From a virus (lineage: Duplodnaviria; Caudoviricetes), in the IMG/VR virus record IMGVR_UViG_3300032322_000635, positions 1 through 55,059 of that record: a stretch of DNA of 55,059 bases; one strand, given 5' to 3'. This document shows, piece by piece, positions 1,700-38,119 of this stretch. Under the pieces are notes generated by a model. That model was not told where the DNA came from and did not search any database. It was given only the letters and a program-made list of their open reading frames with translations. Every line of letters begins with the position of its first letter. Within the stretch, counting starts at the first letter, position 1. The position numbers and the translations under genes are program-made.

Positions 1700-4600
1700 C
1701 GTAGGCAAGATTGTTAAAGGCGGACTTAAGGTTGCAAAAGAAATTGCAGAGGGTTCTGCTGCTCGCGCTATTGGTAAGAAGCCTAGAGAAGTTCCTCCAC
1801 CATTCGAACGCGCGCCAGCTAAGTCTAAAGCAGAGATAGATGAGATTGCTAGACGCATCGCTCCACAACTTACTGGTGAGTTTGTCCGCCTCAATCCTAA
1901 ACAAAGCGTCAACCCTGTAGGTAAATCTAAAAAACGATTTGACTATGAGAAGACACTAGAGCACGACATCCGTCCATACACAGAGATCATAGAGCCTGAG
2001 AACTTTGACTATGCTGCTAACCAGGGAAGAGTGCAGCTTGGTATCTTTGGCGACCCAACCCTATCTCAACATGACATCTATTCAGTAGCAGGCCGCAAGC
2101 TTTCAACACCGTCAAGACAATTTGGCGGACCACGTTATGCTATGGACAAGCCTGAAGAAGCCTGGGCATCAAACTTTGGTGCAGCATCAGGATTACAAGC
2201 GGCCGCTAAACAAGCATCACAACAATATGGTGGCGCAGATGTTGTTGGATTGTATTCAAAGATGAGCCAAGACTCTTATGACTTCGCTCAGCATGTAACA
2301 GACACGTTAATGAAAAACATCATGCTGTCATTACCTGACATGAGCAAGAAAGATATTGCTGGCTTTAACAAGATGGTGCGTAACAATCCCGCTGCTAAAG
2401 ACTTTGCTGGTATTGAAAACCCTGACATTGCTTTAGCACAGATGGAAAAGAATCCTGAGATGCGTAAACAATTCTACTGGCGCGCAACAACTCCAACATT
2501 AACAGACGCATTCAACATGCCTAACGGACTTGATGCCGTTCACGCAACCATCATCCCTGAACTTCGCAATCTTGAGACTGGTATCACTGGTCACACTATA
2601 GTTGAGTTAGATCCTGACATAAAATATCTTCATCCAACAACTCGAGAGACTTCTACTACATACGACACAAGCATTCCTCGTAAAGCAGACACTGAAGTTA
2701 AGAAGCTTGAGGCTCTTACTCCAATTGAGATGTCGTTCCCTGATCAATTACTAGAGATTAGTAAGAATCCTAGACAGGCTGGACCAAATGCTTTCGGAAC
2801 ATTAAAAGGTCAGGGCGCACGTCAGATCATTGACCCACAACACATTGACGAGATTGGTACATACAGAGACTTCATCAAGAAGTACACAGGTAAGAAGAAA
2901 GGCGGCGCAGTCAAGATGGCTGACGGCGGTAAAGTATTCAAGGCAGCGCTTAAGTTATTAAAAGAAACAGGAGAAGAAACAACTGAAGCTGCAGCTAAGT
3001 TACCTCCAGCAGAGAACTCAGCACGTACACAAATCGTTGGCACAATTCCTACATACCACAAAGCCCGTGACATACTTAAAGGCTATGGCATTGAAGGCGA
3101 AAGAATCATAGACCTTGGCGCAGGCAAAGGATTAGGCTCAACTATTATGAAGGCACATTCTATGGAGCCTTATGCACAAGGATGGGAGCCAACGTTCACA
3201 CGCGCTGCAGACATTCCGTCAGATACATACGAAGGCCTTACAAACTTAAACGTACTCAATGTAGTTAGCCCTGAAATCAGACGCGGCATTGTTGAAGACA
3301 TCGGTCGTGTACTTAAACCACAAGGCGGCGTGGGCCTCATTACTACACGCGGTAAAGACGTAATGAATACAGTTGGTGGTAAGCCAGGTCCTGAACCTAT
3401 GTCAATGATTACATCGCGCGATACATATCAAAAAGGTTTCACACAACAAGAGTTATATGACTACATCAAAGATATCCTTGGTGACAAGTTTGAATACGAG
3501 AAATTAGATCTAGGTCCAGCAGGCGTTAAAGTAATTAAGAAAGCTAAAGGTGGCGCAGTAGAAGACGATACTGACTACATTCAAGAAGATCCAGTTGCTT
3601 ACCTTATGAATAAGATCAAGCCAGTGAAGACAGCTATAGACAGTCCTGAAGAGTTTAGCCGCCGCATAGGCAAACCAATTCCTGGAGTTAATCCAGCTAT
3701 TGCAATGTTAAAAAAAGGTATTAACCCAGTTATTGAAGCATTAAGAGAAGATGTACAAAAGATTAAACCGAGTGCAGCAATAGACATTCCTGTTAACACA
3801 GTATCAGAAATACTTGGTGCGCCAGTAGACATTGCAAACGAACTAAGAGAGCCAGTAACTCCAATCAGATCAGACATCGTAAGCTCAATAAAAGACTATA
3901 AGCTTCCGCCTTCAGAAGCGTTGCCAGGATCATCTAAAGCATTTAAGAAAGCAACGACAGACATTGGCCTCACCTCAGGTGAAGACTACCCTGCACTACA
4001 GTTTGCAGCTGGCATGGTTGGGCTGCCTGAAGTAAAAGCAGTTGGTAAACTAGCTAAGACTGGTGCTAAAGCTTACGGTAACTTAATCAAAGAAGGTATT
4101 GAGCGCAACATAGGTATGTTTGAGCCACGCATGAACATCATCAAAGACCCAGGTGGTATGTTAGTCGGTGGCGAGAAAGCTTTAGATGATGAATTAGCTT
4201 CGATGAAGAAATGGGCACCAAACTCACCTGAACCTACAGTAGCATTAAACAATTGGGTTGACACAAAAGTTAGAAAGTATTTGCGTAACCAAGCAGGCAC
4301 AGAAAAAGATCCAATACTTAAAGCTATTGAGTCAGGTGTAGAACATAATTTCCAGCCAGCTATGGGAGATACTAAATACTATGTAAAAAACAAAAGAGCT
4401 TCAGTAGGCAAACCTGAAGAAGGTATTGCCAAAACAGAATTAGGTAAAGAATGGGAATACAAAATTGACTCAATGTTTAACCCTAAAAGATCTGAGGAAA
4501 TTAGAGATATTGTAAATAACCCAATGGAGTTTGCAGACCCCTCTACAGCAAAAAGAAGAAAAGCATCACTGCTTCGTGTTGAGCATGACTTGCCAATACA

Positions 4601-5756
4601 AAACGAAGCAGACCTTGATGCACTATCACTGATTAATCAAATACCTGATAAGCATGTATACACATTAAGTGGAACTAATATTACAAACAGATTAGGACTT
4701 AATCATGTTTCTGATGTTCTTTATGAAGACTTAGCAGCTGGCCGCTTAACACCTCAACAACTTGATCAGATGTCTATCGAAAAAGCTATACGCCGCACTG
4801 CAGAGTATGACACAGAAAAAGCTAAAGCAATGACAAAGGCGCACGCAACTTCAGTAGAAGGTATGCCAATCCCTAAAGAATACAACGATGGATATAAATG
4901 GGTAGAACTTAAACACGAAACAGATCCATCGAAAACTAAATCAGCTTTGAAGTCAGAAGGTGAAATGATGGGTCACTGCGTCGGTGGTTATTGTCCTGAA
5001 GTTGAAAGCGGAGAAATTAAAATATTCTCATTACGAAGCCCTGACGGTAAATCACATGTCACTATTGAAGCGCGACCACAAATTAGCATGACCTTGTGGA
5101 GAAACGAAAACATGGATCTTATTAGCAGAAATCCTGAGTTAATGAAATTAGATTTCAATATGAGGTCTTTAGATAATGACGACAAATATGGACGTCAAAT
5201 GACAGAGCGTGATTACATAAGAATAATGACTGAGGAGATGAAAAAGCGAAATATTAATCCTATTGAACCGCCAAGCTACATGGAGCTTCATCAAGTTAAG
5301 GGTAAACAAAACAAACGCCCTGACGAAAAATATCAAAGCTATATTTCAGACTTTATTAAAAACAATCCAACTAAACATGAGATTGCTGATGTGTATGAGT
5401 TAAACAATACAAACTTAATGAGTGTGCAAGATATAGTTGATACGGGATTAGTTAATAAAAAAATTCACTTTCATCCTGACGTTATTAAAGCGCTAGAAAG
5501 CACAGTGCCTAATTATCAAAAACAAACGCCGTTACTAAAAGATGAATATACATACGGATTGATTAAAGGCATCGCTAAAGACTTTGCAAGCAAAGGTCAA
5601 TATTACATTGATAACGAAGATATTATTAACGCAGCAAAAGCAATGATCCCTCCAGGTAAAAAAGCTGGCGGACCAATTACTAAAAAAGATTTGGAGAACC
5701 AAATGAAGTTAGACGATATTGTAGACACACCAAACTTAAGGAGACGTTATGGCTGA
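1692..5756 (+). CDS. Large multidomain (polyvalent-type) protein with class I SAM-methyltransferase-like and PcfJ-like domains
   Basis: IIDLGAGKG (SAM motif I), LNVLNVV and VLKPQGG; EGEMMGHCVGGY...IFSLRS...HVTIE...QVKGKQN is PcfJ-like; domains are separated by KxGG motifs. Confidence 0.7.
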   Translation: MADVGKIVKGGLKVAKEIAEGSAARAIGKKPREVPPPFERAPAKSKAEIDEIARRIAPQLTGEFVRLNPKQSVNPVGKSKKRFDYEKTLEHDIRPYTEIIEPENFDYAANQGRVQLGIFGDPTLSQHDIYSVAGRKLSTPSRQFGGPRYAMDKPEEAWASNFGAASGLQAAAKQASQQYGGADVVGLYSKMSQDSYDFAQHVTDTLMKNIMLSLPDMSKKDIAGFNKMVRNNPAAKDFAGIENPDIALAQMEKNPEMRKQFYWRATTPTLTDAFNMPNGLDAVHATIIPELRNLETGITGHTIVELDPDIKYLHPTTRETSTTYDTSIPRKADTEVKKLEALTPIEMSFPDQLLEISKNPRQAGPNAFGTLKGQGARQIIDPQHIDEIGTYRDFIKKYTGKKKGGAVKMADGGKVFKAALKLLKETGEETTEAAAKLPPAENSARTQIVGTIPTYHKARDILKGYGIEGERIIDLGAGKGLGSTIMKAHSMEPYAQGWEPTFTRAADIPSDTYEGLTNLNVLNVVSPEIRRGIVEDIGRVLKPQGGVGLITTRGKDVMNTVGGKPGPEPMSMITSRDTYQKGFTQQELYDYIKDILGDKFEYEKLDLGPAGVKVIKKAKGGAVEDDTDYIQEDPVAYLMNKIKPVKTAIDSPEEFSRRIGKPIPGVNPAIAMLKKGINPVIEALREDVQKIKPSAAIDIPVNTVSEILGAPVDIANELREPVTPIRSDIVSSIKDYKLPPSEALPGSSKAFKKATTDIGLTSGEDYPALQFAAGMVGLPEVKAVGKLAKTGAKAYGNLIKEGIERNIGMFEPRMNIIKDPGGMLVGGEKALDDELASMKKWAPNSPEPTVALNNWVDTKVRKYLRNQAGTEKDPILKAIESGVEHNFQPAMGDTKYYVKNKRASVGKPEEGIAKTELGKEWEYKIDSMFNPKRSEEIRDIVNNPMEFADPSTAKRRKASLLRVEHDLPIQNEADLDALSLINQIPDKHVYTLSGTNITNRLGLNHVSDVLYEDLAAGRLTPQQLDQMSIEKAIRRTAEYDTEKAKAMTKAHATSVEGMPIPKEYNDGYKWVELKHETDPSKTKSALKSEGEMMGHCVGGYCPEVESGEIKIFSLRSPDGKSHVTIEARPQISMTLWRNENMDLISRNPELMKLDFNMRSLDNDDKYGRQMTERDYIRIMTEEMKKRNINPIEPPSYMELHQVKGKQNKRPDEKYQSYISDFIKNNPTKHEIADVYELNNTNLMSVQDIVDTGLVNKKIHFHPDVIKALESTVPNYQKQTPLLKDEYTYGLIKGIAKDFASKGQYYIDNEDIINAAKAMIPPGKKAGGPITKKDLENQMKLDDIVDTPNLRRRYG

Positions 5757-8325
5757 GATGCCCATTGACCCAAATTTCGGTCGCAACATACCAGGGCTTC
5801 CTGATCCACAAGGTCAGCAGGCTCAACAACCTCAAGAACAGATGCCTCCTGGTGGCATGGAAATTGACTTGCTTCAATTTGAAGAACCTCAAGAAATAGA
5901 AGAGTTAGATGATGGCTCAGCTATTGTTCACATGGACAATTACAAAGGTCCTGATGAAGATGAAGAGTTCTATTCAAACTTAGCAGAGTCAGTAAACCTT
6001 TACGATATTAATCGCATTGCAATGCGCTACTTAGATTTAATTGAAAAAGATAAGGAAGCTAGAGAGAAACGTGATAAACAATATGAAGAAGGTATTAAGA
6101 GAACTGGGCTGGGTGATGATGCTCCTGGCGGCGCGAACTTTATGGGAGCTTCTAAGGTTGTACACCCTGTTATGGCAGAAGCTTGCGTTGACTTTGCAGC
6201 GTCTGCAATCAAAGAAATGTTTCCGCCCGATGGCCCAACACGAACAAAAATCCTCGGTGAAGTAACGGAAGAAAAGACAGAGATAGCAGAACGTAAACGT
6301 GACTACATGAACTGGCAGCTCACAGAACAGATTGAAGAGTTCCGTGATGAGACAGAACAATTACTTACACAGTTACCATTAGGTGGATCACAGTTCTTAA
6401 AACTCTACTACGACGACAAGAAGAAACGTCCATGCGCAGAGTTTGTACCTATCGACAATATCTACTTACCATTCGCGTCAGCAAACTTCTACACAGCACA
6501 ACGTGTAACAGAAGTACAAGATATTACTGACTGGGAATTTAGACAACGTATTGACCGCGGCCTCTATCGTGATACGGATTACATCCGCGCAACAGCAGAG
6601 CCTGAAGAGTCTAAATCAGAACAAGCTAACAACAAAGTAGAAGGCCGTCAGTATCAAGATGGCGTTGATGGTTTACGCCGCGTCTATCACATCTATACGT
6701 ACTTAGAGTTGGATGATGACAAGCGTACCAAAGGTGAGACAGCTCCTTACATTCTTATGATCGATGACATCGACAACAAGGTGTTAGGTCTATACAGAAA
6801 CTGGGAGGAAGGCGATGAAACGTTTACTAAACTGGACTGGCTGGTCGAATTTAAGTTCATACCTTGGAGAGGTGCTTATGCCATTGGCTTGCCTCATCTT
6901 ATTGGTGGGCTTAGTGCTGCTCTTACAGGTTCTTTACGTGCTTTACTGGATACCGCTCATATCAATAATAGCGCTACAATGCTTAAGCTTAAAGGTGCGA
7001 AAATTAGCGGGCAGTCTGATCAGATAGAGATCACACAGATTGTAGAAATTGAAGGTGCACCAGGTGTAGACGATGTTCGTAAGATTGCTATGCCGTTACC
7101 ATTCAATCCACCATCACCAGTATTGTTCCAATTACTTGGTTGGTTAGATAACGCAGCTAAAGGTGTGATATCAACATCCGAAGAGAAGATTGCAGACATC
7201 AATGCAAACGCTCCAGTAGGTACAACACAAGCGTTGATTGAACAAGGCGCTAAAGTATTCTCATCTATCCACGCAAGACTTCACGAGTCACAAGGTCGAG
7301 TATTAAAAGTACTAGGCCGTATCAATCGTTGGTATCTTGACGAGCAGAAGAAGGGCGACGTTGTTGTTGACCTTCCAATTGTTAAAGAAGATTTTAATAA
7401 AAACTCTGACGTTATTCCAGTTTCTGATCCGCATATTTTCTCAGAAACACAACGTATGGCTCAGAATCAAGCTGTATTAACTTTAATGCAAACATATCCA
7501 CAATCGTTTGATGTTAACGCTGTATTACAACGCGTACTCAAACAGATGAAGGTGCCTAACGTAAATGAGTTAATGCCAGCAACTGCTAAACCTAGAGAGA
7601 TGGATGCCGCACATGAAAATGCTGCGATGGCATTAGGAAAACCTGCGTTCGCATATCCACGTCAAGAACATCTTGCGCACTTACAGTCACATTTAAACTT
7701 TGCGCTTGACCCTAACCTAGGTGGAAGCAATTTAATCGCTCCTGCGTACATACCGCAAGCTTTAGAGCATATTAAACAGCACATGATGCTCTGGTATGTA
7801 AACCAAATGAATGAGTACGCAACTGACGGTACTGGTATTGATATCAAGAAATACGACAAGAGTAAATTGGTTGAGAAAATTGATCAAGCAATTGCACTGG
7901 CTAGTGAACACGTTAAGCAAGATACGCAAGAAGTATTTGCGGGCGTTACACCAGCTCTGCAACAACTTGGTGAAATTATGAAGAAATTCCAACAACAACC
8001 ACAGATTCCTCCAGCTGATCAAGCGATCCTACAAGCGTCACTTGCTGAAACGCAAAGACGTCAAGCTAAAGATCAACTTGATGCTCAGTATGATCAAGCA
8101 AAACTACAATCTGACAATCAGAACATTGATAAGAAGCTTGTGTTTGAAGCTCAAGAATCTCAGAAGAAACGCGATATTGATATTGCGATGAACGCTGAAA
8201 ACAACTTAACGCAAGAACGAATCAAGTCAGCAGAACTTACTATTGATGAGATTCGCTTACGTAAAGAGCAGGAGCAGACTGCTATAAAACTGCAAAATGA
8301 AGCTCAACGTAACTTAGGGAGATAG
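5749..8325 (+). CDS. Portal protein (podovirus type, long C-terminal coiled coil)
   Basis: 858 aa; position after terminase; HPVMAEACVDFAA and PVGTTQALIEQG motifs; Gln/Glu-rich helical C-terminus. Confidence 0.85.
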   Translation: MAEMPIDPNFGRNIPGLPDPQGQQAQQPQEQMPPGGMEIDLLQFEEPQEIEELDDGSAIVHMDNYKGPDEDEEFYSNLAESVNLYDINRIAMRYLDLIEKDKEAREKRDKQYEEGIKRTGLGDDAPGGANFMGASKVVHPVMAEACVDFAASAIKEMFPPDGPTRTKILGEVTEEKTEIAERKRDYMNWQLTEQIEEFRDETEQLLTQLPLGGSQFLKLYYDDKKKRPCAEFVPIDNIYLPFASANFYTAQRVTEVQDITDWEFRQRIDRGLYRDTDYIRATAEPEESKSEQANNKVEGRQYQDGVDGLRRVYHIYTYLELDDDKRTKGETAPYILMIDDIDNKVLGLYRNWEEGDETFTKLDWLVEFKFIPWRGAYAIGLPHLIGGLSAALTGSLRALLDTAHINNSATMLKLKGAKISGQSDQIEITQIVEIEGAPGVDDVRKIAMPLPFNPPSPVLFQLLGWLDNAAKGVISTSEEKIADINANAPVGTTQALIEQGAKVFSSIHARLHESQGRVLKVLGRINRWYLDEQKKGDVVVDLPIVKEDFNKNSDVIPVSDPHIFSETQRMAQNQAVLTLMQTYPQSFDVNAVLQRVLKQMKVPNVNELMPATAKPREMDAAHENAAMALGKPAFAYPRQEHLAHLQSHLNFALDPNLGGSNLIAPAYIPQALEHIKQHMMLWYVNQMNEYATDGTGIDIKKYDKSKLVEKIDQAIALASEHVKQDTQEVFAGVTPALQQLGEIMKKFQQQPQIPPADQAILQASLAETQRRQAKDQLDAQYDQAKLQSDNQNIDKKLVFEAQESQKKRDIDIAMNAENNLTQERIKSAELTIDEIRLRKEQEQTAIKLQNEAQRNLGR

Positions 8326-8327
8326 AT

Positions 8328-8504: not shown

Positions 8505-8689
8505 GGTACGTATCCGACATTATCAGTGCTGTAAAAGCGCGTCAGGCGGAGATTGAAAAGTCGTTAGCAAGTGGCAACGCTGCTAATTATGATTCTTATC
8601 AACGCTTGGTCGGAGAGTATGCAGGCTTATCAACTGCGATAGATATTATTAACAACCTTCTAAAAGAAGAGGAAGACAAAGAACTATGA
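8501..8689 (+). CDS. Small helical head-module protein
   Basis: ORF track; coupled overlaps on both sides; YQRLVGEYAGL motif. Confidence 0.7.
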   Translation: MRYVSDIISAVKARQAEIEKSLASGNAANYDSYQRLVGEYAGLSTAIDIINNLLKEEEDKEL

Positions 8690-9108
8690 GTAACAATCCA
8701 GTAGCTGGTAGTACGGCTGATTTACAGGATGCTTTTCCTGTTGTAGACCCTGGTGCAGTTCCTTTAGGCGCAAGAGTACTTGTACAAATGCGTTTACCAA
8801 AAAAAAGAATGACCTCATCGGGAATTATTCTCGCTGCAGAAACAGTGGATACAGAGAAAGCGCAAAATCCTGTCGGCAAAGTAGTAGCCATCGGACCATT
8901 AGCGTTTAAAAAACGCGACACAATGGAATCATGGCCAGAAGGTTCATGGGTAGAAGTGGGCGATTTCGTCCGCGTACCACGTTGGACTGGAGACAGATGG
9001 GAAATCCCAGTTAGCAAAGATGACGTAGTGCAGTTCATGCTTATGAACGACCATGAAATTATTGCTAAATTAACAAGCGATCCACTAGAAATGAGGGCAT
9101 TTGTATGA
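8686..9108 (+). CDS. groES: GroES/Cpn10-like co-chaperonin
   Basis: PLGARVLV, mobile loop TSSGIIL, GKVVAIGP, VEVGDFV, C-terminal MNDHEIIA. Confidence 0.85.
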   Translation: MSNNPVAGSTADLQDAFPVVDPGAVPLGARVLVQMRLPKKRMTSSGIILAAETVDTEKAQNPVGKVVAIGPLAFKKRDTMESWPEGSWVEVGDFVRVPRWTGDRWEIPVSKDDVVQFMLMNDHEIIAKLTSDPLEMRAFV

Positions 9109-10082
9109 GTATTGATGACAAAGATGTAAAAGATACAGAAGTTATTGAAGTAGAAGAGGCTGGAGATGGTTCTGCTATTGCAGAATTACCTGAAAGCATC
9201 CCTTCACCACAAGGAGATGGAAGCGATGAAGCAGACGAACGTGCTGCCAAAGCTGAAATCATGGCTACAGGCTCTGTTGATCCTGATGCTGAAGCCCTTC
9301 GTGAAGCAAAGCGCGAAAAGAGACGCATGCGCAAAGAGTATCATAAGAAGGTTTCGGTTGAAAAAGACCATAAACTCTCTTATTTAGAGCGTCAAAACCA
9401 AGAATTGCTAGAAAGATTAGCGGTTGTTGAGAGAAAAACCCACGGATCAGAGATTGCCCGCTTAAATAAGGCAATTGAAGACCAAGAAACAAAGATTTTG
9501 TATGCTAAACAGCGTATTAAGGAAGCTACAGAGACTGGCAACGGTGATTTACTCACTTCTGCACAGGAAATGTGGTTTGAGGCACGTAGAGACTTTGAAG
9601 CTTTAGATAATTTGAAGCGTCAATCAGTCAATATACAGCCTAGACAGACAATTCAAGCGCCAGATCCAATGGTTCAGCGTTATGCAACGGATTGGATGTC
9701 AGAAAATCCTTGGTACGACCCTAATGGCCGTGATCCTGACTCAAAAGTAGCTCTTACTATTGACCAGGCAATGGCTGACGAGGGTTGGAGCCCACAAACT
9801 CAAGATTACTGGGAAGAACTCGATAATCGCTTGCAAAAGTATTTACCTCATCGTTATAATGGGGTGGTAGAAAGCGTAAGTCCATCTACAAGAAGACCTA
9901 GAAATGTTATTACAAGTTCTGGTCGGGAAAGCATGGCATCGAGTGGAGGTGGTAAAAACACATTCACATTAAGCCCAGACCAAGTCAGGGCAATGAAAGA
10001 TGCAGGCATGTGGGATGATCCCGATAAACGAGCAAAGATGATTAAACGCTATGCTCAAGACCAACGTAACAACAAACTATAG
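9105..10082 (+). CDS. Probable capsid scaffolding protein
   Basis: Acidic N-terminus, long coiled coil, NPWY motif, short C-terminal helical hairpin (LSPDQVRAMKDAGM); lies between portal and capsid. Confidence 0.65.
   Translation: MSIDDKDVKDTEVIEVEEAGDGSAIAELPESIPSPQGDGSDEADERAAKAEIMATGSVDPDAEALREAKREKRRMRKEYHKKVSVEKDHKLSYLERQNQELLERLAVVERKTHGSEIARLNKAIEDQETKILYAKQRIKEATETGNGDLLTSAQEMWFEARRDFEALDNLKRQSVNIQPRQTIQAPDPMVQRYATDWMSENPWYDPNGRDPDSKVALTIDQAMADEGWSPQTQDYWEELDNRLQKYLPHRYNGVVESVSPSTRRPRNVITSSGRESMASSGGGKNTFTLSPDQVRAMKDAGMWDDPDKRAKMIKRYAQDQRNNKL
9831..9860 (+). promoter_or_regulatory. Sigma70-like promoter inside the scaffold gene, facing the capsid genes
   Basis: TTGCAA-N18-TATAAT. 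Confidence 0.45.
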
Positions 10083-10092
10083 GAGAATTAAA

Positions 10093-11266: not shown

Positions 11267-11285
11267 TTAAAGGAAGGAATAAACC

Positions 11286-12919: not shown

Positions 12920-13092
12920 TGGAAATTACGAAAGAATTTCTACTTTCTGAAATTAAACGCCTTGAAGGCGAACGTAACCAAGCGTCAAGTTTTGTTACAG
13001 CGGCTCAAGGAGCAATTGATGCTTACACAGCATTAGTTGAGAGAATAGACACACAAACCGACCAACAAGGAGAAAATAATGGGTCAATTTAA
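12919..13092 (+). CDS. Small coiled-coil protein (57 aa, MEITKEFLLSEIKRL...)
   Basis: Manual translation; TAATG coupling with the upstream stop. Confidence 0.6.
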   Translation: MEITKEFLLSEIKRLEGERNQASSFVTAAQGAIDAYTALVERIDTQTDQQGENNGSI

Positions 13093-14239
13093 ACCGATGG
13101 TAAAAATGGAGACTACAGAACCTTCAGTAATTTTAAAACTGAAAAAAGGCGGTTCAGTAGCTCACAAGAAAATGAAAGATGGTGGTGGTTGTTCTGACCA
13201 TAAACCAATGAAAAAAATGATGGATGGTGGCGTTATGGAAGCTTTAGCAGCTCAACCAGCTTTAGTTGGCAAACCTGCTGGCCCAGTTGGCGCTGTATCA
13301 AGACCAAAAAAACCATCAATGGCAGCACGTCGTATGGCCATGATGAGAAAAGGTAAGCGCCCATTTAAAGAAGGTGGCGAGTCAAAAGCTGTACACACAG
13401 CTGAGATGAAGAAGATTAATAAAGTCGAAGGTGAATTAAAATCTCACGAAGGCAAACCAGCTTCTAAAGCTCATAAAGGTTATGCTAACGGCGGCATTAT
13501 TAAATCTACATCAGGCAAATCAACAATCAACACAGCAGAACACACTACTAAGACTAGTGGCAAAACTGGTGACGTTAAGTATGGCAATGGTGGCGGTTAT
13601 AAAACTGGCGGCGTTGTTTTAGGTAACGGCGGTGGTTACAAAACTGGTGGTGTTGCTCTTGGTAATGCAGGTGGTTACAAAAAAGGCGGCAGCTCAAAAA
13701 AAGCGTATGCTAACGGTGGTTCAGTGCAAAATGAAGGCAAAGCCGTTAGTATGCCACAAGGAAATAAAAAGCCTTCAAGCCCTGTAAGTATCAGTAAACT
13801 TTCAGGCACTTTTAAAAATGGTGGCAACGTATCGTCTAAAGCGTTACAAGCTATGTTTAAAAAGGAAAATGCTCCAGCTTTAAAATCTGCCAAAAAAGAC
13901 TCTAATGAAGTTTATAGCGTCTATGCTGGCAAAAAAAAAGATAAGCATTTTGTAGGTGGTGGTCATGCTGAAGGTGATGCTTCAGATAATGTAAGTGACT
14001 TAGCTTATGAAGCTGTTATGAAAGCCGAGAAATCTGGTAAAAAAACCATGATTGATCCTAAAAAAGGCTCAGTAACAGAATCAGAAAGAGAAGTTGTTCG
14101 CAAAACTACGCCAGCTGATAAAGAATATCCGTCAGGAATGACTGATAAACAGATAGATGACTTTTTAAGGCAAGATCTAATGAGAAGGCTTTATGAGCGT
14201 CATATCGATAAAAAAAATGGCGGTAAAGTAGGCAAGTAA
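13079..14239 (+). CDS. Basic Lys/Gly-rich protein built from ~12 xKxGG/xAxGG motifs
   Basis: LKKGG, MKDGG, MMDGG, FKEGG, YANGG x2, YKTGG x2, YKKGG, FKNGG, FVGGG, KKNGG; AAGGAG RBS. Confidence 0.75.
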   Translation: MGQFKPMVKMETTEPSVILKLKKGGSVAHKKMKDGGGCSDHKPMKKMMDGGVMEALAAQPALVGKPAGPVGAVSRPKKPSMAARRMAMMRKGKRPFKEGGESKAVHTAEMKKINKVEGELKSHEGKPASKAHKGYANGGIIKSTSGKSTINTAEHTTKTSGKTGDVKYGNGGGYKTGGVVLGNGGGYKTGGVALGNAGGYKKGGSSKKAYANGGSVQNEGKAVSMPQGNKKPSSPVSISKLSGTFKNGGNVSSKALQAMFKKENAPALKSAKKDSNEVYSVYAGKKKDKHFVGGGHAEGDASDNVSDLAYEAVMKAEKSGKKTMIDPKKGSVTESEREVVRKTTPADKEYPSGMTDKQIDDFLRQDLMRRLYERHIDKKNGGKVGK

Positions 14240-15069: not shown

Positions 15070-15222
15070 ATGCCGCTTATTAAAAGCAAATCACCGAAAG
15101 CATTTAAGGCAAATATTAAGGCCGAAATTAAAGCTGGCAAGCCACAAAAGCAAGCCGTAGCTATTGCTTACGCTGTAAAAAGATCTGCTAAAAAATCTAA
15201 TGGCGGATCATGCAAATGGTAA
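15070..15222 (+). CDS. Small basic protein (50 aa, MPLIKSKSPKAFKANIKAEIKAGKPQKQAVAIAY...)
   Basis: Manual translation; GKPQKQAVAIA motif recurs in phage head modules; ends KSNGGSCKW. Confidence 0.7.
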   Translation: MPLIKSKSPKAFKANIKAEIKAGKPQKQAVAIAYAVKRSAKKSNGGSCKW

Positions 15223-15614
15223 AGAGAGGATTATATGAAAATATTCATAGAAAACGTCAAAGAATTGCTGAAGGCAGCGGTGAAAAAATGCGCAAAGTTG
15301 GATCAGCAGGAGCTCCAACCGCAGCAGACTTTAGACAATCAGCAAAAACCGCAAGAAGAGCAGATGGCGGAGGAGTCAGCCTCTCCGTTGGAAGAGGAGA
15401 AAAACTCCCAACCGATAGAGGAGCAGGGCTCACCAATAAAGGAAGACTAAAATATAACAGAGAAACAGGAAGTAATTTAAAAGCACCACAACCTCAGGGA
15501 GGTTCACGTAAGAATAGTTTTTGTGCACGCATGTCAGGTGTTGTAGAACACGCTAAAGGCGATGCACCAAGAGCTAAAGCTTCTTTAAGACGTTGGAAAT
15601 GCTCAGGCTGGTAA
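15210..15614 (+). CDS. Basic hypothetical protein (C-terminal RKNSFCARM...SLRRWKC domain)
   Basis: ORF track; two small modules (GLYENIH... and GAGLT...SFCARM) joined by an RRADGG motif. Confidence 0.65.
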   Translation: MQMVKRGLYENIHRKRQRIAEGSGEKMRKVGSAGAPTAADFRQSAKTARRADGGGVSLSVGRGEKLPTDRGAGLTNKGRLKYNRETGSNLKAPQPQGGSRKNSFCARMSGVVEHAKGDAPRAKASLRRWKCSGW

Positions 15615-31079: not shown

Positions 31080-31080
31080 T

Positions 31081-34057: not shown

Positions 34058-34064
34058 GACAAAT

Positions 34065-36698
34065 ATGGCAACTAATCTAACTACTCCATTAATGAGCCAA
34101 CCCACTGGCGTTCCAATCACATCTCCTGGAAGTGGAACTGGCGCAATTCCAGGCGTAAATTATCAAAATCAAACAACCGATAATACCGCTGCTGGCGCTT
34201 TATTAGGTGGTTTAACTGGACTGGCTTTAAGCAAAGCATTTAAAGCTCCTGCCACACAAAATAAACCACAAGCTCCTAAATCTGTAGACGCTCCTAGCAT
34301 TTCTAATTTACCCTCTAAAAAGACAAAATCACCTGGCGCGGCTAGTATAGGTTCAGCTGCAGGAACTCCTGTCGGTGGAGGCTCCACTGGAGCTGTAGGT
34401 GGTTTAGCTTTCCCTAAAGGCACAACACAAGAACAAGTTGATGCTTATCATGGTAAATCAAACGGTCAATCTAATTACGTTATTGCAGGTGTTAACCCAT
34501 CTAATGGTGACATTATTGCTCAACCAAGTACAAGCATTGGTGGCGGAAACTTAACTGGCACTGGCTCAGGACCAACAGAGACAGCAACTCCTCCTGCTGA
34601 CCAAGACCCTGGAACATACTTTCAAGATCCGTACGGAAATGTATATGATGGAGACGGAAATCTTTATGCGGTAAAGAGTGGAGACACTTACTATGTGAAA
34701 GATCCTTCATCTTCTGATTCTTGGATCAATGCAAACAATCCACAGGAAGTCATTACAACGGATGAGCTATATAGCTCTACTGGTGGTGGTTATGAAACTC
34801 CATCTACAGACATATCACTTCCAGATATTGATGTTGGCGGTAGCGATTGGGATTATTCAAATAATGATCTTTATTACCCAACAGACCCATACGAATATTA
34901 CACACCTCCTGATGAGAATAGTTATTACACACCTCCAACAGACACTGGAAATTATTATCCTGATTATGGTTATGAAACTCCTTCATATGATACTAGCATC
35001 TACTCACCAATTGACACTACTGGCGGTATGTTTAGTAGTTTCTTTAAAAAAGGCGGTTTAGCAACTCCATTATTTAAAAGAGGCGGCTCTGTTAGAGGTT
35101 ATGCAGACGGTTCTCTTGTGGAAGCAGCTGAAGACATGGCTCCAAGCTCAACATTAAATCAAGAGCCAGTTGCTATGGAAACTACAAGCGAAACTAATCC
35201 ATTAGTGCGTACGCTTACTGATCTTCTTACTAACCCAACTGTTATAGGCGCTGGCGCTGGTGCGGCATTAGGTAACTTATCAGGCGGAAGTACTAATCAA
35301 GTTAATCAAGGTATTGACATGTCGCAGCTTGGCTTAAAACCAAGAACAACGACGTTTGGCATGGGCCCTGCAAATTTCGTGCCTTACGAAGATTACAGTC
35401 AACCATATGCTTTAACTACATCTCAAAATACAGGTGGCCTAGGTGCTGCAACATATCAACCTACAATACCTAATATGAGCGCACCTGGTGGAGGCACAAC
35501 AACAACGCCAACCACGCCAACAACGCCAACAACAACTGGCGGCATGACTACTGAACAGTTAACAGCTCTTATCAATTCTATTTTAAGTAATCAAAATACT
35601 GGCGGTGGAACCACTACAGGCGGCGGTACAACTACAGGTGGAGGTACAACCACGGGCGGAGGTACAACAACTGGTGGAGGTGCTACTACAGGTGGCGGAA
35701 CTACAACACCACAATACTACACAGATGGCAAAGGTAATATATACGACGCTAATGGTAATCTAGTCAAAGCCGCAAACACAGGTGGTAGAGATGACGATGA
35801 CGATGATGATGATGACAGAGATAGAGATAGATATAGAGATAGAGATAGAAGACCTTCTACAACAGCTCCACAATACTTCACGGATGGCAAAGGAAACATC
35901 TATGATGCTAACGGCAATTTAGTTAAAGCTGCTGGATCTACAACGGGAACGACAACTGGAACTGGGACAACAACTAGTGGCGGTGGATTGCCTACAACCA
36001 CAGGAACTACAACACCTGCTCCAATTAACCCTGGTTATGCAAATTTAGTAAACACTTACAATACTCAATTAAAGACTCTTCAAGACAAACTTGCTTTAGC
36101 TCCAGCAGCTGAAAAAGGAAGCATAAACTCTCAAATATTCCAGGTACAAAAGCTTTTAAGCAATTTAAATACAAAATTTAATCCAGCAACTGGAAAAGAA
36201 TATACTAGAAGAGAACTAAGTGAGATAGAACACGCCGCAAAGGAAGCTAAAAAAAATGCAGCAAGATCTACCTCCTCTTCAAGCCAACCTGCTAGACAAG
36301 CATCGTATAATTACGGCACTCGAGTAAGCCCATCTTCTGTATTAAATCGCTTTCTGGGAAGAGGAATGGCTGAAGGTGGATTAGCGTATGATATGCATCC
36401 TGACAATATGGTTGATCACGTGCCTATTATGGATGGTCGACATGATTACAGAGCTGGTGCTCGTGTAGAAGGCGCTGGCGATGGCCAGTCTGATGACATT
36501 CCAGCAATGCTTGCGGACGGTGAATACGTAATTGATGCTGAAACTGTGGCGCAATTAGGTAACGGATCTAATAAAGCTGGCGCTAAAGTGCTTGATCAAT
36601 TTAGAGAAAACATTCGCGAACATAAACGCAGCGCACCATTACATAAAATACCGCCAAAGAGTAAATCTCCATTGGCTTATCTCAAAGGAGCTAAATAA
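34065..36698 (+). CDS. Probable ejection protein, low complexity, with tape-measure-like C-terminal domain
   Basis: GALLGGLTGLAL segment; GGGTTT and poly-Asp/RD repeats; C-terminal GAGDGQSDDIPAMLADGEYVIDAETV. Confidence 0.6.
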   Translation: MATNLTTPLMSQPTGVPITSPGSGTGAIPGVNYQNQTTDNTAAGALLGGLTGLALSKAFKAPATQNKPQAPKSVDAPSISNLPSKKTKSPGAASIGSAAGTPVGGGSTGAVGGLAFPKGTTQEQVDAYHGKSNGQSNYVIAGVNPSNGDIIAQPSTSIGGGNLTGTGSGPTETATPPADQDPGTYFQDPYGNVYDGDGNLYAVKSGDTYYVKDPSSSDSWINANNPQEVITTDELYSSTGGGYETPSTDISLPDIDVGGSDWDYSNNDLYYPTDPYEYYTPPDENSYYTPPTDTGNYYPDYGYETPSYDTSIYSPIDTTGGMFSSFFKKGGLATPLFKRGGSVRGYADGSLVEAAEDMAPSSTLNQEPVAMETTSETNPLVRTLTDLLTNPTVIGAGAGAALGNLSGGSTNQVNQGIDMSQLGLKPRTTTFGMGPANFVPYEDYSQPYALTTSQNTGGLGAATYQPTIPNMSAPGGGTTTTPTTPTTPTTTGGMTTEQLTALINSILSNQNTGGGTTTGGGTTTGGGTTTGGGTTTGGGATTGGGTTTPQYYTDGKGNIYDANGNLVKAANTGGRDDDDDDDDDRDRDRYRDRDRRPSTTAPQYFTDGKGNIYDANGNLVKAAGSTTGTTTGTGTTTSGGGLPTTTGTTTPAPINPGYANLVNTYNTQLKTLQDKLALAPAAEKGSINSQIFQVQKLLSNLNTKFNPATGKEYTRRELSEIEHAAKEAKKNAARSTSSSSQPARQASYNYGTRVSPSSVLNRFLGRGMAEGGLAYDMHPDNMVDHVPIMDGRHDYRAGARVEGAGDGQSDDIPAMLADGEYVIDAETVAQLGNGSNKAGAKVLDQFRENIREHKRSAPLHKIPPKSKSPLAYLKGAK

Positions 36699-38119
36699 TG
36701 GCTGATCTATTTCAAGGTTCGCTACTACCCTCAACAACCACGACCACGTCGACGCAACAAACTGCGCCTGAGTTTTATACTAATTACTTACAAGACGTTG
36801 CAAATCTTGGACAAAATGCAGTTCAACAAGGTGGTGTAGCAGGTTTTAGCCCATTACAAACTCAAGCATTTAACATGGCTCCATCAACTGCGTTCTCAGG
36901 ACAGGGTGCAGCAACACAAGCCCAAGCTTTAACAAACGCAGCTGGCACAACATCAGCTCCAAGCATCATTAATGACTACATGAATCCATACACTGGCAAA
37001 GTGGTGGATGAAATGGCGCGTCTACAGCAACAAAACTTGCAACGTAATGTATTGCCAACAATTGCAGGCGGCGGCGTAGGCACAGGATCATTCGGATCAC
37101 GCAGACAACAACAAGCTTTAGGCCAATCTTTATCTGATATGCAAGCTAACCTTACTGGCCAACAATATGGTGCTTTAAATACTGGCTATCAAAACGCTAT
37201 GCAATCTGCACAAGCTGACTTAAACCGTCAATTACAAGCTGGCCAAGGTATGAGTAACGTTGCACAACAACAATATCAAATTGGCAGCGGCGGATTAAAT
37301 ACATTGTCTTCACTTGGTTCTTTACAGCAAGCTCAAGGCCAAAGACAACTTGATTATCCAATGGTGCAAGCACAAAACTATGCAAACTTATTGCAAGGCC
37401 TAAACATTCCTACTGGCCAAGTACAACAAACCGTAGCACCAGGACAGCAAGGTCAATACACTAACAGTCCATTATCACAAATTGCTGGTATAGGCTCATT
37501 ACTTGCTGCTATCTCTGGCACTGGCACAACCAATAGCACAAGTATTGTTAATGATCTCATAAACGCAATCAGAGGCACTTCATCAACTCCTGCAGCAACT
37601 CCTCCAGCAACTGGTAAAGAAGGCGGCAGTGTTGTTGGTTATGCAGACGGTGGAACGGTTGAGCCAATAGACATGCAAGGGATGACAAAGCCATACGACT
37701 TGAGTCAAGGTGGAACAGAGATGTTTGAAAATAACCCAGTAGACCCAATCGTGTATACAGGCGGCACTCCAAACTTTGATGAAACAACTGGTGAATATAT
37801 TAACCCAGAAGTCAAGCCTTTAAATCCTGAAGTCACAGATATGCCAGTAGCTATGCCAACAGAAGCTCCAACCGACATGCCTGTGCGCAATACAAATACA
37901 CCATTGCCATACGAAAGAACTAATACACCAACACAGCAAGGTAAAACAAACCCAAGATTTCCATTTAAAATAAGAGACTTTAGTAATATGAATTTAGCTC
38001 CTAGAAATCTTATTAAAAACCTTGATAGAGTTCGTAACAGACCACAACGTGTTGAGCGGCCACAAATGCCTAGACGACCTTTAGCTGGCCTTAATTTTAT
38101 GAATAGAGGAAAAAGATAA
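36698..38119 (+). CDS. Probable ejection protein (Gln/Gly-rich, P22 gp7-like role)
   Basis: VAGFSPLQTQA, YMNPYT, GSFGSRRQ and SPLSQIAGIG motifs. Confidence 0.65.
   Translation: MADLFQGSLLPSTTTTTSTQQTAPEFYTNYLQDVANLGQNAVQQGGVAGFSPLQTQAFNMAPSTAFSGQGAATQAQALTNAAGTTSAPSIINDYMNPYTGKVVDEMARLQQQNLQRNVLPTIAGGGVGTGSFGSRRQQQALGQSLSDMQANLTGQQYGALNTGYQNAMQSAQADLNRQLQAGQGMSNVAQQQYQIGSGGLNTLSSLGSLQQAQGQRQLDYPMVQAQNYANLLQGLNIPTGQVQQTVAPGQQGQYTNSPLSQIAGIGSLLAAISGTGTTNSTSIVNDLINAIRGTSSTPAATPPATGKEGGSVVGYADGGTVEPIDMQGMTKPYDLSQGGTEMFENNPVDPIVYTGGTPNFDETTGEYINPEVKPLNPEVTDMPVAMPTEAPTDMPVRNTNTPLPYERTNTPTQQGKTNPRFPFKIRDFSNMNLAPRNLIKNLDRVRNRPQRVERPQMPRRPLAGLNFMNRGKR

Follow-up and report, generated by a model that had tools for sequence, protein, structure and literature searches.

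The late genes of this phage raise the question of why otherwise non-homologous proteins carry the same short di-glycine motif. The window, that is, the whole stretch of 55,059 nucleotides that was analysed, is a complete podovirus genome, and the first-pass annotation had described about 24 copies of the motif in six late proteins, proposing a common cleavage or capsid-loading signal. We believe that one part of this proposal stands, namely the shared tag on late internal-type proteins; the functions assigned to it, cleavage and capsid loading, are candidates. The motif has seven residues, a hydrophobic one (F/Y/M/L) followed by [K/A]-x-G-G-x-[V/I/A]. The features concerned are the following.

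1692..5756 (+): multi-domain cargo-type ("polyvalent") protein of 1354 aa, encoded between terminase and portal
2892..2936 (+): motif pair KKKGGAV-KMADGGKV in the 1354-aa protein
3537..3560 (+): motif copy KKAKGGAV, behind the methyltransferase-like domain of the 1354-aa protein
5655..5678 (+): motif copy GKKAGGPI, ~30 aa before the C-terminus of the 1354-aa protein
9105-10082 (+): scaffold-like ORF9105, with degenerate copy MATGSV at 9261..9278 in an acidic N-terminal region
13079..14239 (+): ORF13079, 386 aa, pI 10.0, 16.6% Lys, 14.8% Gly
15070..15222 (+): ORF15070, 50 aa, Lys-rich, C-terminal copy, ends KKSNGGSCKW
15210..15614 (+): ORF15210, 134 aa, copy RRADGGGV at 15357-15377
34065..36698 (+): ORF34065, 877 aa, ejection-type, 3 copies observed vs 0.38 expected
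35043-35114 (+): triple module of ORF34065, FKKGGLATPLFKRGGSVRGYADGS, with FKKGGLA at 35043, FKRGGSV at 35073 and degenerate YADGS at 35100-35114
36366-36386 (+): MAEGGLA copy of ORF34065, upstream of the C-terminal tape-measure-like segment
36462..36695 (+): tape-measure-like C-terminal segment, aa ~800-877 of ORF34065, G-x-G-D-G-Q-SDDIPAMLADGEYV...
36698..38119 (+): ORF36698, 473 aa, weakly matching a family of DNA-ejection proteins
37616-37660 (+): motif pair KEGGSV-VGYADGGTV of ORF36698, separating the N-terminal domain from a Pro/Thr-rich tail

Frequency of the motif in this genome and its relatives

The pattern of the first-pass annotation, [FYMLK][KA].GG, and a stricter form, [FYMLK][KA].GG[^G][VIAL], were compared with 2000 within-protein shuffles that kept the composition of each ORF (70 ORFs, 17,574 aa). 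The first pattern was observed 20 times against 4.08 ± 1.97 in the shuffles (maximum 12), and the strict one 15 times against 0.97 ± 0.98 (maximum 5). Two of the 20 matches, the single copies in ORF22354 and ORF39790, are compatible with chance, being reached in 552 and 413 of the 2000 shuffles, respectively; the copies of ORF15070 and ORF15210 match only under a still looser pattern. In all, 22 clear and one or two degenerate copies were counted, close to the earlier figure, and all coordinates given earlier for the copies were correct on re-check. The Gly codons at the motif (GGC, GGT and GGA) and the neighbouring codons vary, and therefore the signal lies at the protein level. Because the pattern was derived from this genome itself, the strict form was fixed and re-run on seven other genomes, using their late-strand ORFs and 1000 shuffles each.

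MW202545: 14 strict copies vs 0.99 expected; 0/1000 shuffles reach 14
DSL-LC04: 8 vs 0.99 expected; 0/1000 shuffles reach 8
Pag-Yong1: 4 vs 0.79 expected; 6/1000 shuffles reach 4
HTVC027P: 3 vs 0.92 expected; 66/1000 shuffles reach 3; borderline
HTVC023P: 2 vs 0.95 expected; 250/1000 shuffles reach 2; no enrichment
Caulobacter phage RW: 1 vs 0.69 expected; 495/1000 shuffles reach 1; no enrichment
CRP-901: 0 vs 0.81 expected; no enrichment

The enrichment against Gly/Lys composition, suggested earlier as a check, was thus found here and in MW202545, DSL-LC04 and Pag-Yong1. These results support the motif as a real, selected, protein-level feature. No published description of it was found in the literature.

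Carriers and placement of the copies

The 1354-aa protein has 4 copies against 0.35 expected from the shuffles. Pfam places PcfJ (PF14284) at aa 1041-1130, and a weak methyltransferase-like match covers aa 467-597; each of its three domains has a copy behind it (the pair at aa 401-415, then aa 617-623 and 1323-1329), and a near-copy, IVKGGLK, lies at aa 7-13.

ORF13079, with no family match in Pfam, PHROG or NCBIfam, carries 11 copies, one at its extreme C-terminus: 10 match [FYMLK][KA].GG (0.65 expected), and the other is MMDGG. Its relatives number at least 4952 at E<=1e-3 among 8000 scored candidates. In alignments of 15 and 67 sequences, the motif columns are invariant and the spacers variable, and insertions add further copies; the MW202545 homologue, 32% identical, has kept the copies and changed the spacers. 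The full-length homologues (n = 76) have 6-12 copies (median 8), and 76 of 81 homologues have a copy within the last 15 aa. Duplication is clearly the origin of the tandem repeats. ORF15070 homologues are conserved, with C-termini ..GGSCKW or ..GGKVSW, and in MW202545 an ORF15070-like N-terminus sits in a 171-aa protein ending FKKGGKVNW. In ORF15210, RRADGGGV is flanked by an N-terminal phrog_16028 segment and a C-terminal DUF6321 domain; 98 homologous ORFs contain 21 strict copies.

In ORF34065, the triple module is kept across the family with a commonest spacing of 10, and at least 90% of 87 sequences retain G771/G772. In the AF2 monomer model, the motif regions have pLDDT <50 and adjoin confident domains. 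For ORF9105, the column of MATGSV reads E-[ML]-A-x-G-G-x-[VI] in most homologues; 17 of the 45 homologues match the strict pattern, and the strongly acidic context of these copies speaks against an origin in Lys/Gly composition or DNA binding alone. The scaffold-like protein of this genome has just the degenerate MATGSV, a point against the docking role considered below.

Among 80 related viral contigs, the strict copies per 1000 aa were 22.4 in the ORF13079 family, 3.69 in the 1354-aa protein family, 1.76 in the ORF15210 family and 1.22 in the scaffold-like family. The portal (25,735 aa), the MCP (17,236 aa) and GroES had 0 strict copies in these contigs, and the earlier remark that MCP, portal and replication proteins lack the motif was true of this genome and of the 80 contigs. 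Of 33 unclassified ORFs with 450 aa or more, 24 had the motif. It is common to non-homologous late proteins, both in this phage and in many of its uncultured relatives; conserved in homologues, it also recurs in unrelated proteins that fill the same genome slot (a 900-aa protein in MW202545, a PcfJ-like protein in DSL-LC04, gp41/gp42 in HTVC027P). Judged by family and gene position, the carriers are probably internal, cargo or ejection proteins, a single functional class to which the motif is confined.

The copies sit in flexible, low-confidence segments after, before or between folded domains and near C-termini, frequently in tandem (2-3 together, 8-13 residues apart); domain matches, the structure model and homologues thus bore out the description of often paired copies at domain boundaries and termini. 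Outside the ORF13079 family, 33 carriers have a copy among their final 30 residues, where 20.4 would be expected. Copies only 5-15 aa short of the C-terminus are numerous, and some relatives have N-terminal copies at aa 7-16. V/I at +2 is conserved, and most copies have just one hydrophobic residue after Gly-Gly. Flank charge is +1.3 to +2.4 in basic settings and averages a net -4.4 in the scaffold-like N-terminus; acidic proteins such as ORF34065 (pI 4.8) also carry the motif. Since the flanks are both basic and acidic, a recognised peptide fits better than an effect of charge or composition.

Possible roles of the motif

A real and conserved motif on non-homologous late proteins makes a shared reader a reasonable inference. 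We tentatively favour, with less than even confidence, the view that the motif serves internal proteins as a multivalent tag for docking or co-assembly. It would be a short linear element, recognised by a partner, and would mark proteins that are packed in the head and, for the most part, then expelled into the cell. Each copy may weakly bind one common partner that is available while the procapsid assembles; another internal protein, the scaffold, portal or shell, or the tape-measure-like C-terminal segment of ORF34065 are candidates. A tagged domain would be recruited into the particle and leave together with the ejection proteins, and ORF13079 is a candidate multivalent hub, possibly with many arms. 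The enrichment over composition, the confinement to one class of proteins, the positions of the copies, the mixed charge of their flanks and the failure to find a prohead protease family speak for this view, and the T4 internal proteins offer a precedent. No binding partner was identified by any of our analyses. RW shares the MCP (76% identical), portal, scaffold-like and GroES genes, yet has one strict copy only, so nothing obviously requires the reader to be one of the conserved head proteins.

The motif may instead be a maturation site at or beside whose Gly-Gly a phage or host protease cuts, which we consider unlikely. Such cuts would free the domains of the 1354-aa protein, trim the ejection and scaffold-like proteins, and chop ORF13079 into small basic peptides staying with the DNA, comparable to T4 core peptides or adenovirus core proteins. 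The exact inter-domain positions in the 1354-aa protein, the single basic protein with many sites and the N-terminal copies of relatives, which look like short propeptides, favour this explanation. A motif common to scaffold-like and internal proteins is also the expected look of a maturation protease site, as for T4 gp21 (PMC9026906). The proteases themselves speak against it. No prohead protease family (S77, S78, S80 or ClpP-like) was found among 30 late ORFs searched against PHROGs and 40 ORFs against Pfam, nor was any cysteine protease family; the latter 40 likewise gave no adenain-/ASFV-type or clan-CE match, and the model of the conserved ORF10051 (193 aa) gave no protease-like fold match (best Foldseek E 1.4). 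The first-pass annotation had recognised no prohead protease, which holds by Pfam, PHROGs and NCBIfam; it had missed the following gene, which with the M15 endolysin makes up the protease candidates of this genome.

41061..41405 (-): small gene for an SprT-like zincin peptidase with HEMVH; PF10263 scores 36.7 bits (cut-off 25.6)

This zincin counts in favour of cleavage, but it occurs in one of nine genomes searched and is missing from the motif-rich MW202545, DSL-LC04 and Pag-Yong1; it therefore does not track the motif and is probably not its reader. Cleavage also fits poorly with the absence of copies from MCP and portal, with the many near-terminal copies, where a cut would remove almost nothing, and with the tandem spacing and conserved +2 V/I, which exceed the needs of a single scissile site.

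Another possibility, to which we likewise give a low probability, is an ejection-related element that helps extended proteins refold, oligomerise or tether during or after tail passage, and is not a head-loading signal. Stand-alone copies could, for instance, associate in trans with the C-terminal segment of ORF34065, so that cargo would be drawn out along with the ejection proteins. That segment matched 9405 clusters at E<=1e-3 and 17 phage records, annotated tape-measure proteins among them, and matches PDB 8zdo_S, the Douge tape-measure protein, at two sites. MAEGGLA and the segment following it match a composite unit ([FY]-A-x-G-G-x-x, 8-40 aa, then G-x-G-x-SD-x-IPA-x-LS-x-GE-[FY]-V) common to the siphophage tape-measure proteins of mycobacteriophage Douge (two units) and Nitrincola phage 1M3-16 and to a protein of DSL-LC04 that is annotated as tape measure. 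No Pfam family covers the unit, and the Douge structure, which models only aa 1658-1699, does not resolve it (PMC13033339). In the tape-measure proteins examined, the motif occurs inside the unit only (1-2 copies in 1472-1732 aa), unlike in this phage group, where it has spread to many other proteins.

Its presence in tape-measure proteins suggests ejection no less than capsid loading; these proteins are in the tail and not the head, so that copy at least may serve ejection. ORF34065 and ORF36698 are, moreover, ejection-type proteins. HMM matches to the segment were found in six of nine other genomes or regions (domain i-E<=2e-7), with one weak match in HTVC023P (0.029). All five motif-rich or borderline genomes have the segment and CRP-901 lacks both, but this comparison comprises nine mutually related genomes only, and RW has the segment without dispersed copies. 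The scaffold-like protein, for which no ejection is expected, has a copy in many relatives. In the AF2 monomer model, the SD-IPA segment is, like the motif, of low confidence, as would be expected of parts whose folding depends on an assembly, but the motif gave no sign of packing in cis against the C-terminal segment.

We think it improbable that there is no specific reader and that the motif is a flexible linker or turn, with Gly-Gly set between a hydrophobic residue and Val, which disordered, Lys/Gly-rich internal proteins favour, or a generic nucleic-acid or membrane-contact element, spread through duplication and similar physico-chemical demands. Large ejected proteins are thought to move as beads on a string (PMC13434306), which would suit such linkers. 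ORF13079, ORF15210, ORF34065 and ORF36698 are Gly-rich (10.6-14.8%), two carriers are very basic, the copies lie in regions modelled at low confidence, and the ORF13079 repeats clearly stem from duplication. However, shuffles that keep composition yield 4-15 times fewer copies, motif columns are invariant against variable spacers, the bias at positions -1, 0 and +2 relative to Gly-Gly is seen in cargo-type and not in folded structural proteins, and strongly acidic flanks are unexpected for a basic patch binding DNA or membrane.

That the copies imitate a host peptide read by a conserved host machine, such as the GroEL-binding mobile loop of GroES, which the motif may resemble, and that the tagged proteins would so engage this machine, is very improbable: a GroES (Cpn10) gene lies beside the head genes in all relatives compared, and no phage gene matches the presence/absence pattern of the motif, which leaves room for a host reader, but the phage's own GroES loop reads TSSGIILAAE, RW and CRP-901 have GroES with no motif enrichment, and a single hydrophobic residue follows Gly-Gly in most copies.

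Comparison with known systems

In encapsulins, unrelated cargo enzymes likewise bear short loading peptides, usually at the C-terminus and rich in Gly and small hydrophobic residues, which the HK97-fold shell recognises on its inner face; binding to the shell has been demonstrated, and each cargo has one tag and no tandem array. The copies described here differ in being also internal and N-terminal. Adenovirus and ASFV sites have a hydrophobic residue before Gly-Gly and occur in basic core proteins. In the adenovirus consensus quoted by the first-pass annotation, this residue stands two positions before Gly-Gly; here it stands three before, one position farther, which speaks against cleavage. 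The cleavage motifs of T4 and phiKZ end in Glu, as in the "LIE" and "ARE" sites.

SPN3US gp245/phiKZ and T4 cleavage motifs resemble the present one in that a single motif occurs in scaffold, internal and ejection proteins, and prohead-protease motifs are repeated within some propeptides (PMC10052503). Those systems come with an identifiable protease gene, and cleavage extends to MCP and portal, unlike here, where MCP and portal have no copy and no such protease was found. TP901-1/Tuc2009 Tal, a proteolytically processed structural protein, has a glycine-rich processing site at a domain junction, which lends cleavage some support; this site is one poly-Gly/Ser stretch (NGGGNSGGGD) of a single tail protein (PMC11409707), in contrast to hydrophobic-K/A-x-GG-x-V in many proteins here. 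The 1354-aa protein is similar to polyvalent proteins, being a multi-domain late protein encoded beside portal and terminase genes. Iyer et al. (2017) predicted that polyvalent proteins are packaged and injected, and proposed processing through built-in zincin peptidase domains; "glycine" and "linker" each occur 0 times in the main text, so a Gly-Gly inter-domain tag is not described there (PMC5512222).

T4 internal proteins share a short head-targeting peptide, the CTS, which brings the otherwise unrelated IPI-III and Alt into the prohead and can also bring in foreign proteins; its carriers are basic, abundant and ejected (PMC9026906). The T4 CTS occurs once per protein, as an N-terminal propeptide of 10-19 residues that gp21, the prohead protease, cuts off, whereas here most copies are internal or at the C-terminus, they often come in tandem or in larger numbers, Gly-Gly is part of the motif, and no prohead protease is recognisable. 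The motif is a member of neither the T4 nor the encapsulin class, and the logic of a docking tag for internal proteins would resemble that of the T4 capsid-targeting sequence and of the encapsulin cargo-loading peptides.

Occurrence of the Gly-Gly motif in the window and in related phages

The first-pass annotation had described a short di-glycine motif in late proteins of the window; its full form is a heptad, hydrophobic-[K/A]-x-G-G-x-[V/I/A]. All of the motif coordinates given there proved correct when re-checked, and we counted 22 clear copies across six proteins, as well as one or two that are degenerate. The pattern proposed there, [FYMLK][KA].GG, was enriched over composition, with 20 matches in 70 ORFs compared with 4.08 ± 1.97 (maximum 12) in 2000 shuffles that kept the composition of each protein. 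A strict pattern, [FYMLK][KA].GG[^G][VIAL], which adds a non-Gly residue and then V, I, A or L after Gly-Gly, matched 15 times compared with 0.97 ± 0.98 (maximum 5) in the same shuffles. The single matches in ORF22354 and ORF39790 were compatible with chance. The variable motif codons (first Gly, GGC 11 and GGT 8; second Gly, GGC 8, GGT 7 and GGA 4) led us to reject a signal in the DNA, be it a repeat, a Chi-like sequence or a slippery site; because the Gly and flanking codons differ among copies, the signal lies in the protein and not in the DNA.

The 55,059 bases make up a complete virus record, direct terminal repeats included, and the plus strand carries a single long late operon.

Features of the window
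2-1384, +, large terminase
1692-5756, +, 1354-aa multi-domain protein (PcfJ domain at aa 1041-1130; weak methyltransferase-like match at aa 467-597, below cut-off)
5749-8325, +, portal
8686-9108, +, GroES (Cpn10) homologue, between the portal and the scaffold-like gene
9105-10082, +, scaffold-like protein, acidic, coiled-coil
between the scaffold-like gene and the MCP, +, two conserved proteins, each of about 195 aa
11286-12200, +, major capsid protein (MCP), HK97-type
after the MCP, +, ORF13079, ORF14288, ORF15070 and ORF15210, in that order
after ORF15210, +, adaptor, fibre and tail proteins
ORF31745, ORF34065, ORF36698, ORF38119 and ORF39790, +, four or five internal or ejection-type proteins
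41061-41405, -, SprT-like zincin metallopeptidase, 114 aa (PF10263, 36.7 bits; intact HEMVH)

The large terminase frame runs off the left end, the record being cut inside the gene (1-1384); within 54197-55059, a Sf6-type small terminase lies at 54197-54745, and one ORF runs off the right end. ORF36698 has a weak DNA-ejection-protein match, and ORF39790 has an SLT transglycosylase domain. The SU10 adaptor family was matched strongly by ORF27194 (27194-27829, +; E 7e-23) and weakly by ORF15624 (15624-16718, +; 26.7 bits, just below the cut-off of 27), which suggests that the adaptor may be duplicated or two-layered. ORF15070 (50 aa) and ORF15210 overlap by 13 bases (15070-15614, +), and in phage MW202545 an ORF15070-like N-terminus forms part of a 171-aa protein. 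ORF15210 consists of a 50-aa phrog_16028 segment and a DUF6321 domain, which in other PHROG families is the C-terminus of much larger proteins.

By portal similarity, the relatives are the uncultured phage MW202545 (62%), Caulobacter phage RW (48%), Roseobacter phage CRP-901, Pelagibacter phages HTVC027P and HTVC023P, DSL-LC04, and Planktothrix phage Pag-Yong1. The head-gene order, including GroES, is identical in all of them; the mobile-loop region of the phage GroES reads TSSGIILAAE, and the position of its gene is kept in all relatives compared. Because the strict pattern had been defined on the window, it was fixed and then re-tested on these seven genomes, on late-strand, non-overlapping ORFs, which leaves out small overlapping genes such as HTVC027P gp46 and gp47; the scan covered 50 kb per record for RW, CRP-901, HTVC027P, HTVC023P, Pag-Yong1 and MW202545. 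Clear enrichment was found in MW202545 (14 vs 0.99), DSL-LC04 (8 vs 0.99) and Pag-Yong1 (4 vs 0.79, a count reached in 6 of 1000 shuffles). HTVC027P was borderline (3 vs 0.92, reached in 66 of 1000 shuffles), and the late-strand ORFs of HTVC023P, RW and CRP-901 showed no enrichment over shuffles. As a possible trace of a reader evolving together with the motif, genome-specific flavours were sought; HTVC027P tends to GG-R-[IV]-G-[YF] and DSL-LC04 to GG-I-[AV], in numbers too small to count.

The distribution was then measured on 80 viral contigs with a homologue of ORF13079, the Lys/Gly-rich multi-copy protein, whose non-overlapping plus-strand ORFs of at least 45 aa were sorted by BLAST to the window proteins.

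Strict copies per 1000 aa in the 80 contigs
ORF13079 family, 22.4 (678 copies in 81 ORFs)
1354-aa family, 3.69 (31 copies in 10 ORFs)
ORF15210 family, 1.76
scaffold-like family, 1.22 (17 of 45 ORFs, always in the same column)
unclassified ORFs, 1.10

As noted at first pass, the portal and MCP lack the motif, with no copies in 25,735 aa of portal and 17,236 aa of MCP; the GroES of these contigs has no strict copies either. The adaptor- and fibre-family matches (YIAGGGSA and WATGGTV) appear coincidental, each being confined to a single conserved position in folded sequence. Most of the 33 unclassified ORFs that are 450 aa or longer correspond to the large gene next to the portal, and 24 of the 33 contain the motif. 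The large portal-adjacent proteins of MW202545, DSL-LC04 and HTVC027P carry copies, yet they have no BLAST-detectable homology to the 1354-aa protein.

Arrangement of the copies and the tape-measure link

ORF13079 belongs to a very large family, at least 4952 of the 8000 scored candidates being relatives at E<=1e-3. Two alignments, taking 14 and 66 of the 120 relatives listed, contained 15 and 67 sequences; the motif columns were invariant in both, so that the motif is kept in homologues, and insertions in the family bring additional copies. A His-rich helical module of about 40 aa (13364-13495, +; alignment A1 of the family) lies between two motif copies and is present zero, one or two times; its copy number varies among members, and ORF13079 therefore grows or shrinks by whole motif-bounded modules. 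A copy lies within the last 15 residues in 76 of 81 ORF13079 homologues. Of the other carriers, 33 have a copy within the last 30 residues compared with 20.4 expected, with many copies still internal, and small Lys-rich proteins such as ORF15070 end in ...GGSCKW or ...GGKVSW. Every recognisable domain of the 1354-aa protein has a copy after it, which bears out the placement at domain boundaries reported in the first-pass annotation.

When only [K/A]-x-G-G was used as the seed, position -1 in the cargo-type proteins was M, K, F or L and V was the commonest residue two places after Gly-Gly, while folded structural proteins seeded in the same way gave a different residue pattern. The mean net charge of the 16 flanking residues was +1.3 to +2.4 in the cargo families and -4.4 in the scaffold-like family, and the ejection-type proteins ORF34065 and ORF36698 are acidic; the motif is not bound to a basic sequence context.

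For ORF34065 (34065-36698, +), the alignment took 86 of the 150 proteins listed (length 560-1100 aa). Among 150 representatives of its family, the commonest tandem spacing was 10 residues (22 cases), with 8 or 9 in 11 cases, and a triple module is conserved, [FYW]-K-x-G-G-[LM]-A-T-P-[LM]-[FM]-K-x-G-G-x-V-x-x-[YF]-A-D-G-G. In the full-length AF2 model (87-row alignment), the mean pLDDT was 56.9; the motif regions 329-346 and 763-782 had pLDDT below 50 and adjoin a confident beta domain at 110-235. Residues 500-660 hold nine consecutive Asp and then alternating Arg and Asp, as well as repeats resembling (GGGTTT)n; a module Y-[YF]-TDGKGNIYDANGNLVKAA occurs there twice and forms confident small beta units in the model. 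Long (PTT)n tracts are found in both ORF31745 and ORF34065.

A search with the last 138 residues of ORF34065 matched two sites in the mycobacteriophage Douge tape-measure protein (PDB 8zdo_S), with an overall E of 9.2e-6, the matching region being aa 768-822 against Douge gp16. Both Douge sites have a Y-A-x-G-G copy and then G-x-G-T-G-R-SD-S-x-x-A-x-V-S-N-GE-F-I. The composite unit, [FYM]-A-x-G-G followed within about 8-40 aa by G-x-G-x-SD-x-IPA-x-LS-x-GE-[FY]-V, was found here, and it also occurs in the tape-measure protein of Nitrincola phage 1M3-16 and in a DSL-LC04 protein annotated as tape measure. According to the accessible part of PMC13033339, the Douge structure models only residues 1658-1699 of the tape-measure protein and therefore gives no structural information on the composite unit. 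Seventeen phage records contain the C-terminal segment, tape-measure proteins of Rhodococcus phages among them, as do 9405 clusters (E<=1e-3) in a library of 1.84 billion proteins. The HMM of the segment matched the window, MW202545 (twice), RW, Pag-Yong1, DSL-LC04 and HTVC027P, HTVC023P weakly, and CRP-901 not at all. Sequence searches of the PDB gave no matches for the triple module (43 aa), the ORF13079 repeat core (84 aa) or profile A2, and profile A1 gave one weak compositional match (4iry_B, E 0.067).

Search for a protease or another reader of the motif

The first-pass annotation had recognised no prohead protease. This statement stood in searches with PHROGs (30 late ORFs), Pfam (40 ORFs) and NCBIfam (10 ORFs), which found neither a prohead protease nor a cysteine protease; a SprT-like peptidase gene, convergent with the end of the late operon, had been missed. 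No peptidase was found besides this gene and an M15 endolysin. No clan-CE cysteine protease was matched by Pfam in the 40 ORFs, those of the early region being of about 110 aa or more. The PHROG matches of the MCP to "protease" families span only the capsid-protein part of fused proteins. The SprT-like peptidase is unlikely to be a common reader because PF10263 occurs in one of nine related genomes (the window only) and is absent from the motif-rich MW202545, DSL-LC04 and Pag-Yong1.

Two further genes were considered. The conserved ORF10051 (193 aa; 10051-10632, +), between the scaffold-like gene and the MCP, was rejected as a hidden prohead protease, with no protease fold match: its AF2 model had a mean pLDDT of 66.7, Foldseek against the PDB gave no match at E<=0.001 (best E 1.4), and the ESM Atlas returned unnamed viral clusters only. 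Invariant residues of the family include His, Ser, Asp and Cys, and the model matches no solved fold; from an alignment of 36 homologues, translation probably starts at Met 15 (MDSRLKK...). The gene that follows ORF13079, ORF14288, was dismissed as a partner of the motif, its homologues lacking a motif-rich neighbour in DSL-LC05 and in cyanomyoviruses. This gene (14288-15067, +) is phrog_8198, of unknown function; homologues occur in DSL-LC05, an unrelated phage of 37.6 kb (65% identity), and in many cyanomyoviruses (25-33%; annotated "virion protein" in S-SCSM1), a record that bears the name Nitrosopumilaceae spindle-shaped virus matches at 35%, and ORF14288 looks like a widely exchanged virion protein.

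A three-chain complex prediction of the MCP (A4), the scaffold-like protein (A5) and residues 1-260 of ORF13079 (A6), run without controls, gave a score of 0.00 and a mark of 0.32 and says nothing for or against binding. A possible likeness of the motif to the mobile loop of GroES, or to the N-terminus of a ribosomal protein, carries no weight.

Readings of the motif and comparison with known systems

The results showed that the heptad is a selected peptide motif restricted to one functional class of late proteins, that its copies are multivalent and sit in flexible segments at termini and domain junctions, and that it is conserved across non-homologous carriers and distant relatives. We infer that something reads it. 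We tentatively favour a docking or co-assembly tag, which may well prove wrong, for several reasons: cleavage would be pointless at the place of many copies, their tandem arrangement hints at avidity, the motif occurs amid both positive and negative charge, no protease follows its distribution, and T4 offers a precedent for a shared head-targeting peptide (PMC9026906). Phage RW poses the greatest difficulty for any model with a reader: its MCP is 76% identical and its head genes are the same, yet it has essentially no copies.

A maturation-cleavage site is a rather unlikely reading. The motif marks the domain junctions of polyprotein-like cargo and occurs in scaffold-like proteins too, and the accessible part of PMC11409707 describes glycine-rich processing sites in phage structural proteins; a prohead-protease cleavage motif should co-occur with its protease gene, whereas the SprT-like gene, the one peptidase found besides the M15 endolysin, does not track this motif. 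If it were a cleavage site, an unrecognised protease, possibly of the host, would act in head maturation. We also doubt an ejection-related role, which includes pairing in trans of stand-alone copies with the C-terminal segment of ORF34065 and rests on the tape-measure link; the pairing in cis in the AF2 model is uninformative, since both regions are of low confidence. A pure linker or composition effect is quite improbable, being disfavoured by the shuffles and the position-specific biases.

Returning to the docking tag, we speculated that the motif could be a portable, modular "internal-protein address" of a very large, mostly uncultured group of aquatic podoviruses, a complete scheme that we regard as unlikely to hold as a whole. 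A domain with one to three copies after it would be drawn into the procapsid by weak contacts, many at a time, with a hub, the disordered, 6-12-valent ORF13079 family; the tape-measure-like segment of the ejection protein may be a partner with the hub or instead of it, and the recruited domain would then enter the host together with the DNA. Such a system would explain the free swapping of cargo domains in these phages. The 1354-aa protein, with several unrelated domains encoded by a late gene between TerL and portal, has the features of a polyvalent protein, and judged by gene position it may be packaged in the virion and injected.

To our knowledge, how podoviruses select proteins for the head and for the host is largely unknown outside T4. 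Being simple in sequence and statistically robust, the motif flags candidate internal proteins and offers a way into the question of cargo choice. If it is a loading or ejection tag, cargo and anti-defence effectors would be predictable from sequence in uncultured phages, the rapid domain swapping in the portal-adjacent gene would be accounted for, and a short tag for packing foreign proteins into phage particles would be at hand. The tape-measure unit is conserved but unnamed, and the link suggests a feature common to the ejected proteins of long- and short-tailed phages.

No account of the motif appeared among the papers listed in literature searches, which covered this phage group by name, the targeting of proteins to capsids, ejection and cargo proteins, and short linear, tape-measure and glycine-rich motifs or proteins. 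It is absent from the accessible parts of the ejection-protein review PMC8954989 ("motif" once, "glycine" never) and the polyvalent-protein paper PMC5512222, and no proteomic study of virions from this phage group was among the papers listed. T4 and giant phages already provide examples of internal head proteins that share a short signal; the motif sequence, the multivalent architecture, the hub-like ORF13079 family and the tape-measure link appear to be new.

The T4-type capsid targeting sequence is a single N-terminal propeptide of 10-19 residues, able by itself to bring a foreign protein into the prohead and cut off by a prohead protease encoded next to the scaffold, whereas here the copies are mostly internal or C-terminal and often multiple, and no such protease family was found; a few relatives of this phage have a copy at aa 7-16. 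In the GG-X sites of adenain and ASFV, the hydrophobic residue stands two before Gly-Gly (by the consensus quoted in the first-pass annotation) and the virus encodes a clan-CE cysteine protease, whereas here it stands three before and no such protease was matched. The encapsulin-type cargo-loading peptide is C-terminal on its cargo and binds the HK97-fold shell protein on its inner face; the present motif shows a C-terminal bias, yet many copies are internal. The recruitment scheme speculated here, a scaffold-by-sticker system, would be closer to the repeat-motif organiser proteins of bacterial microcompartments than to any known phage targeting signal.
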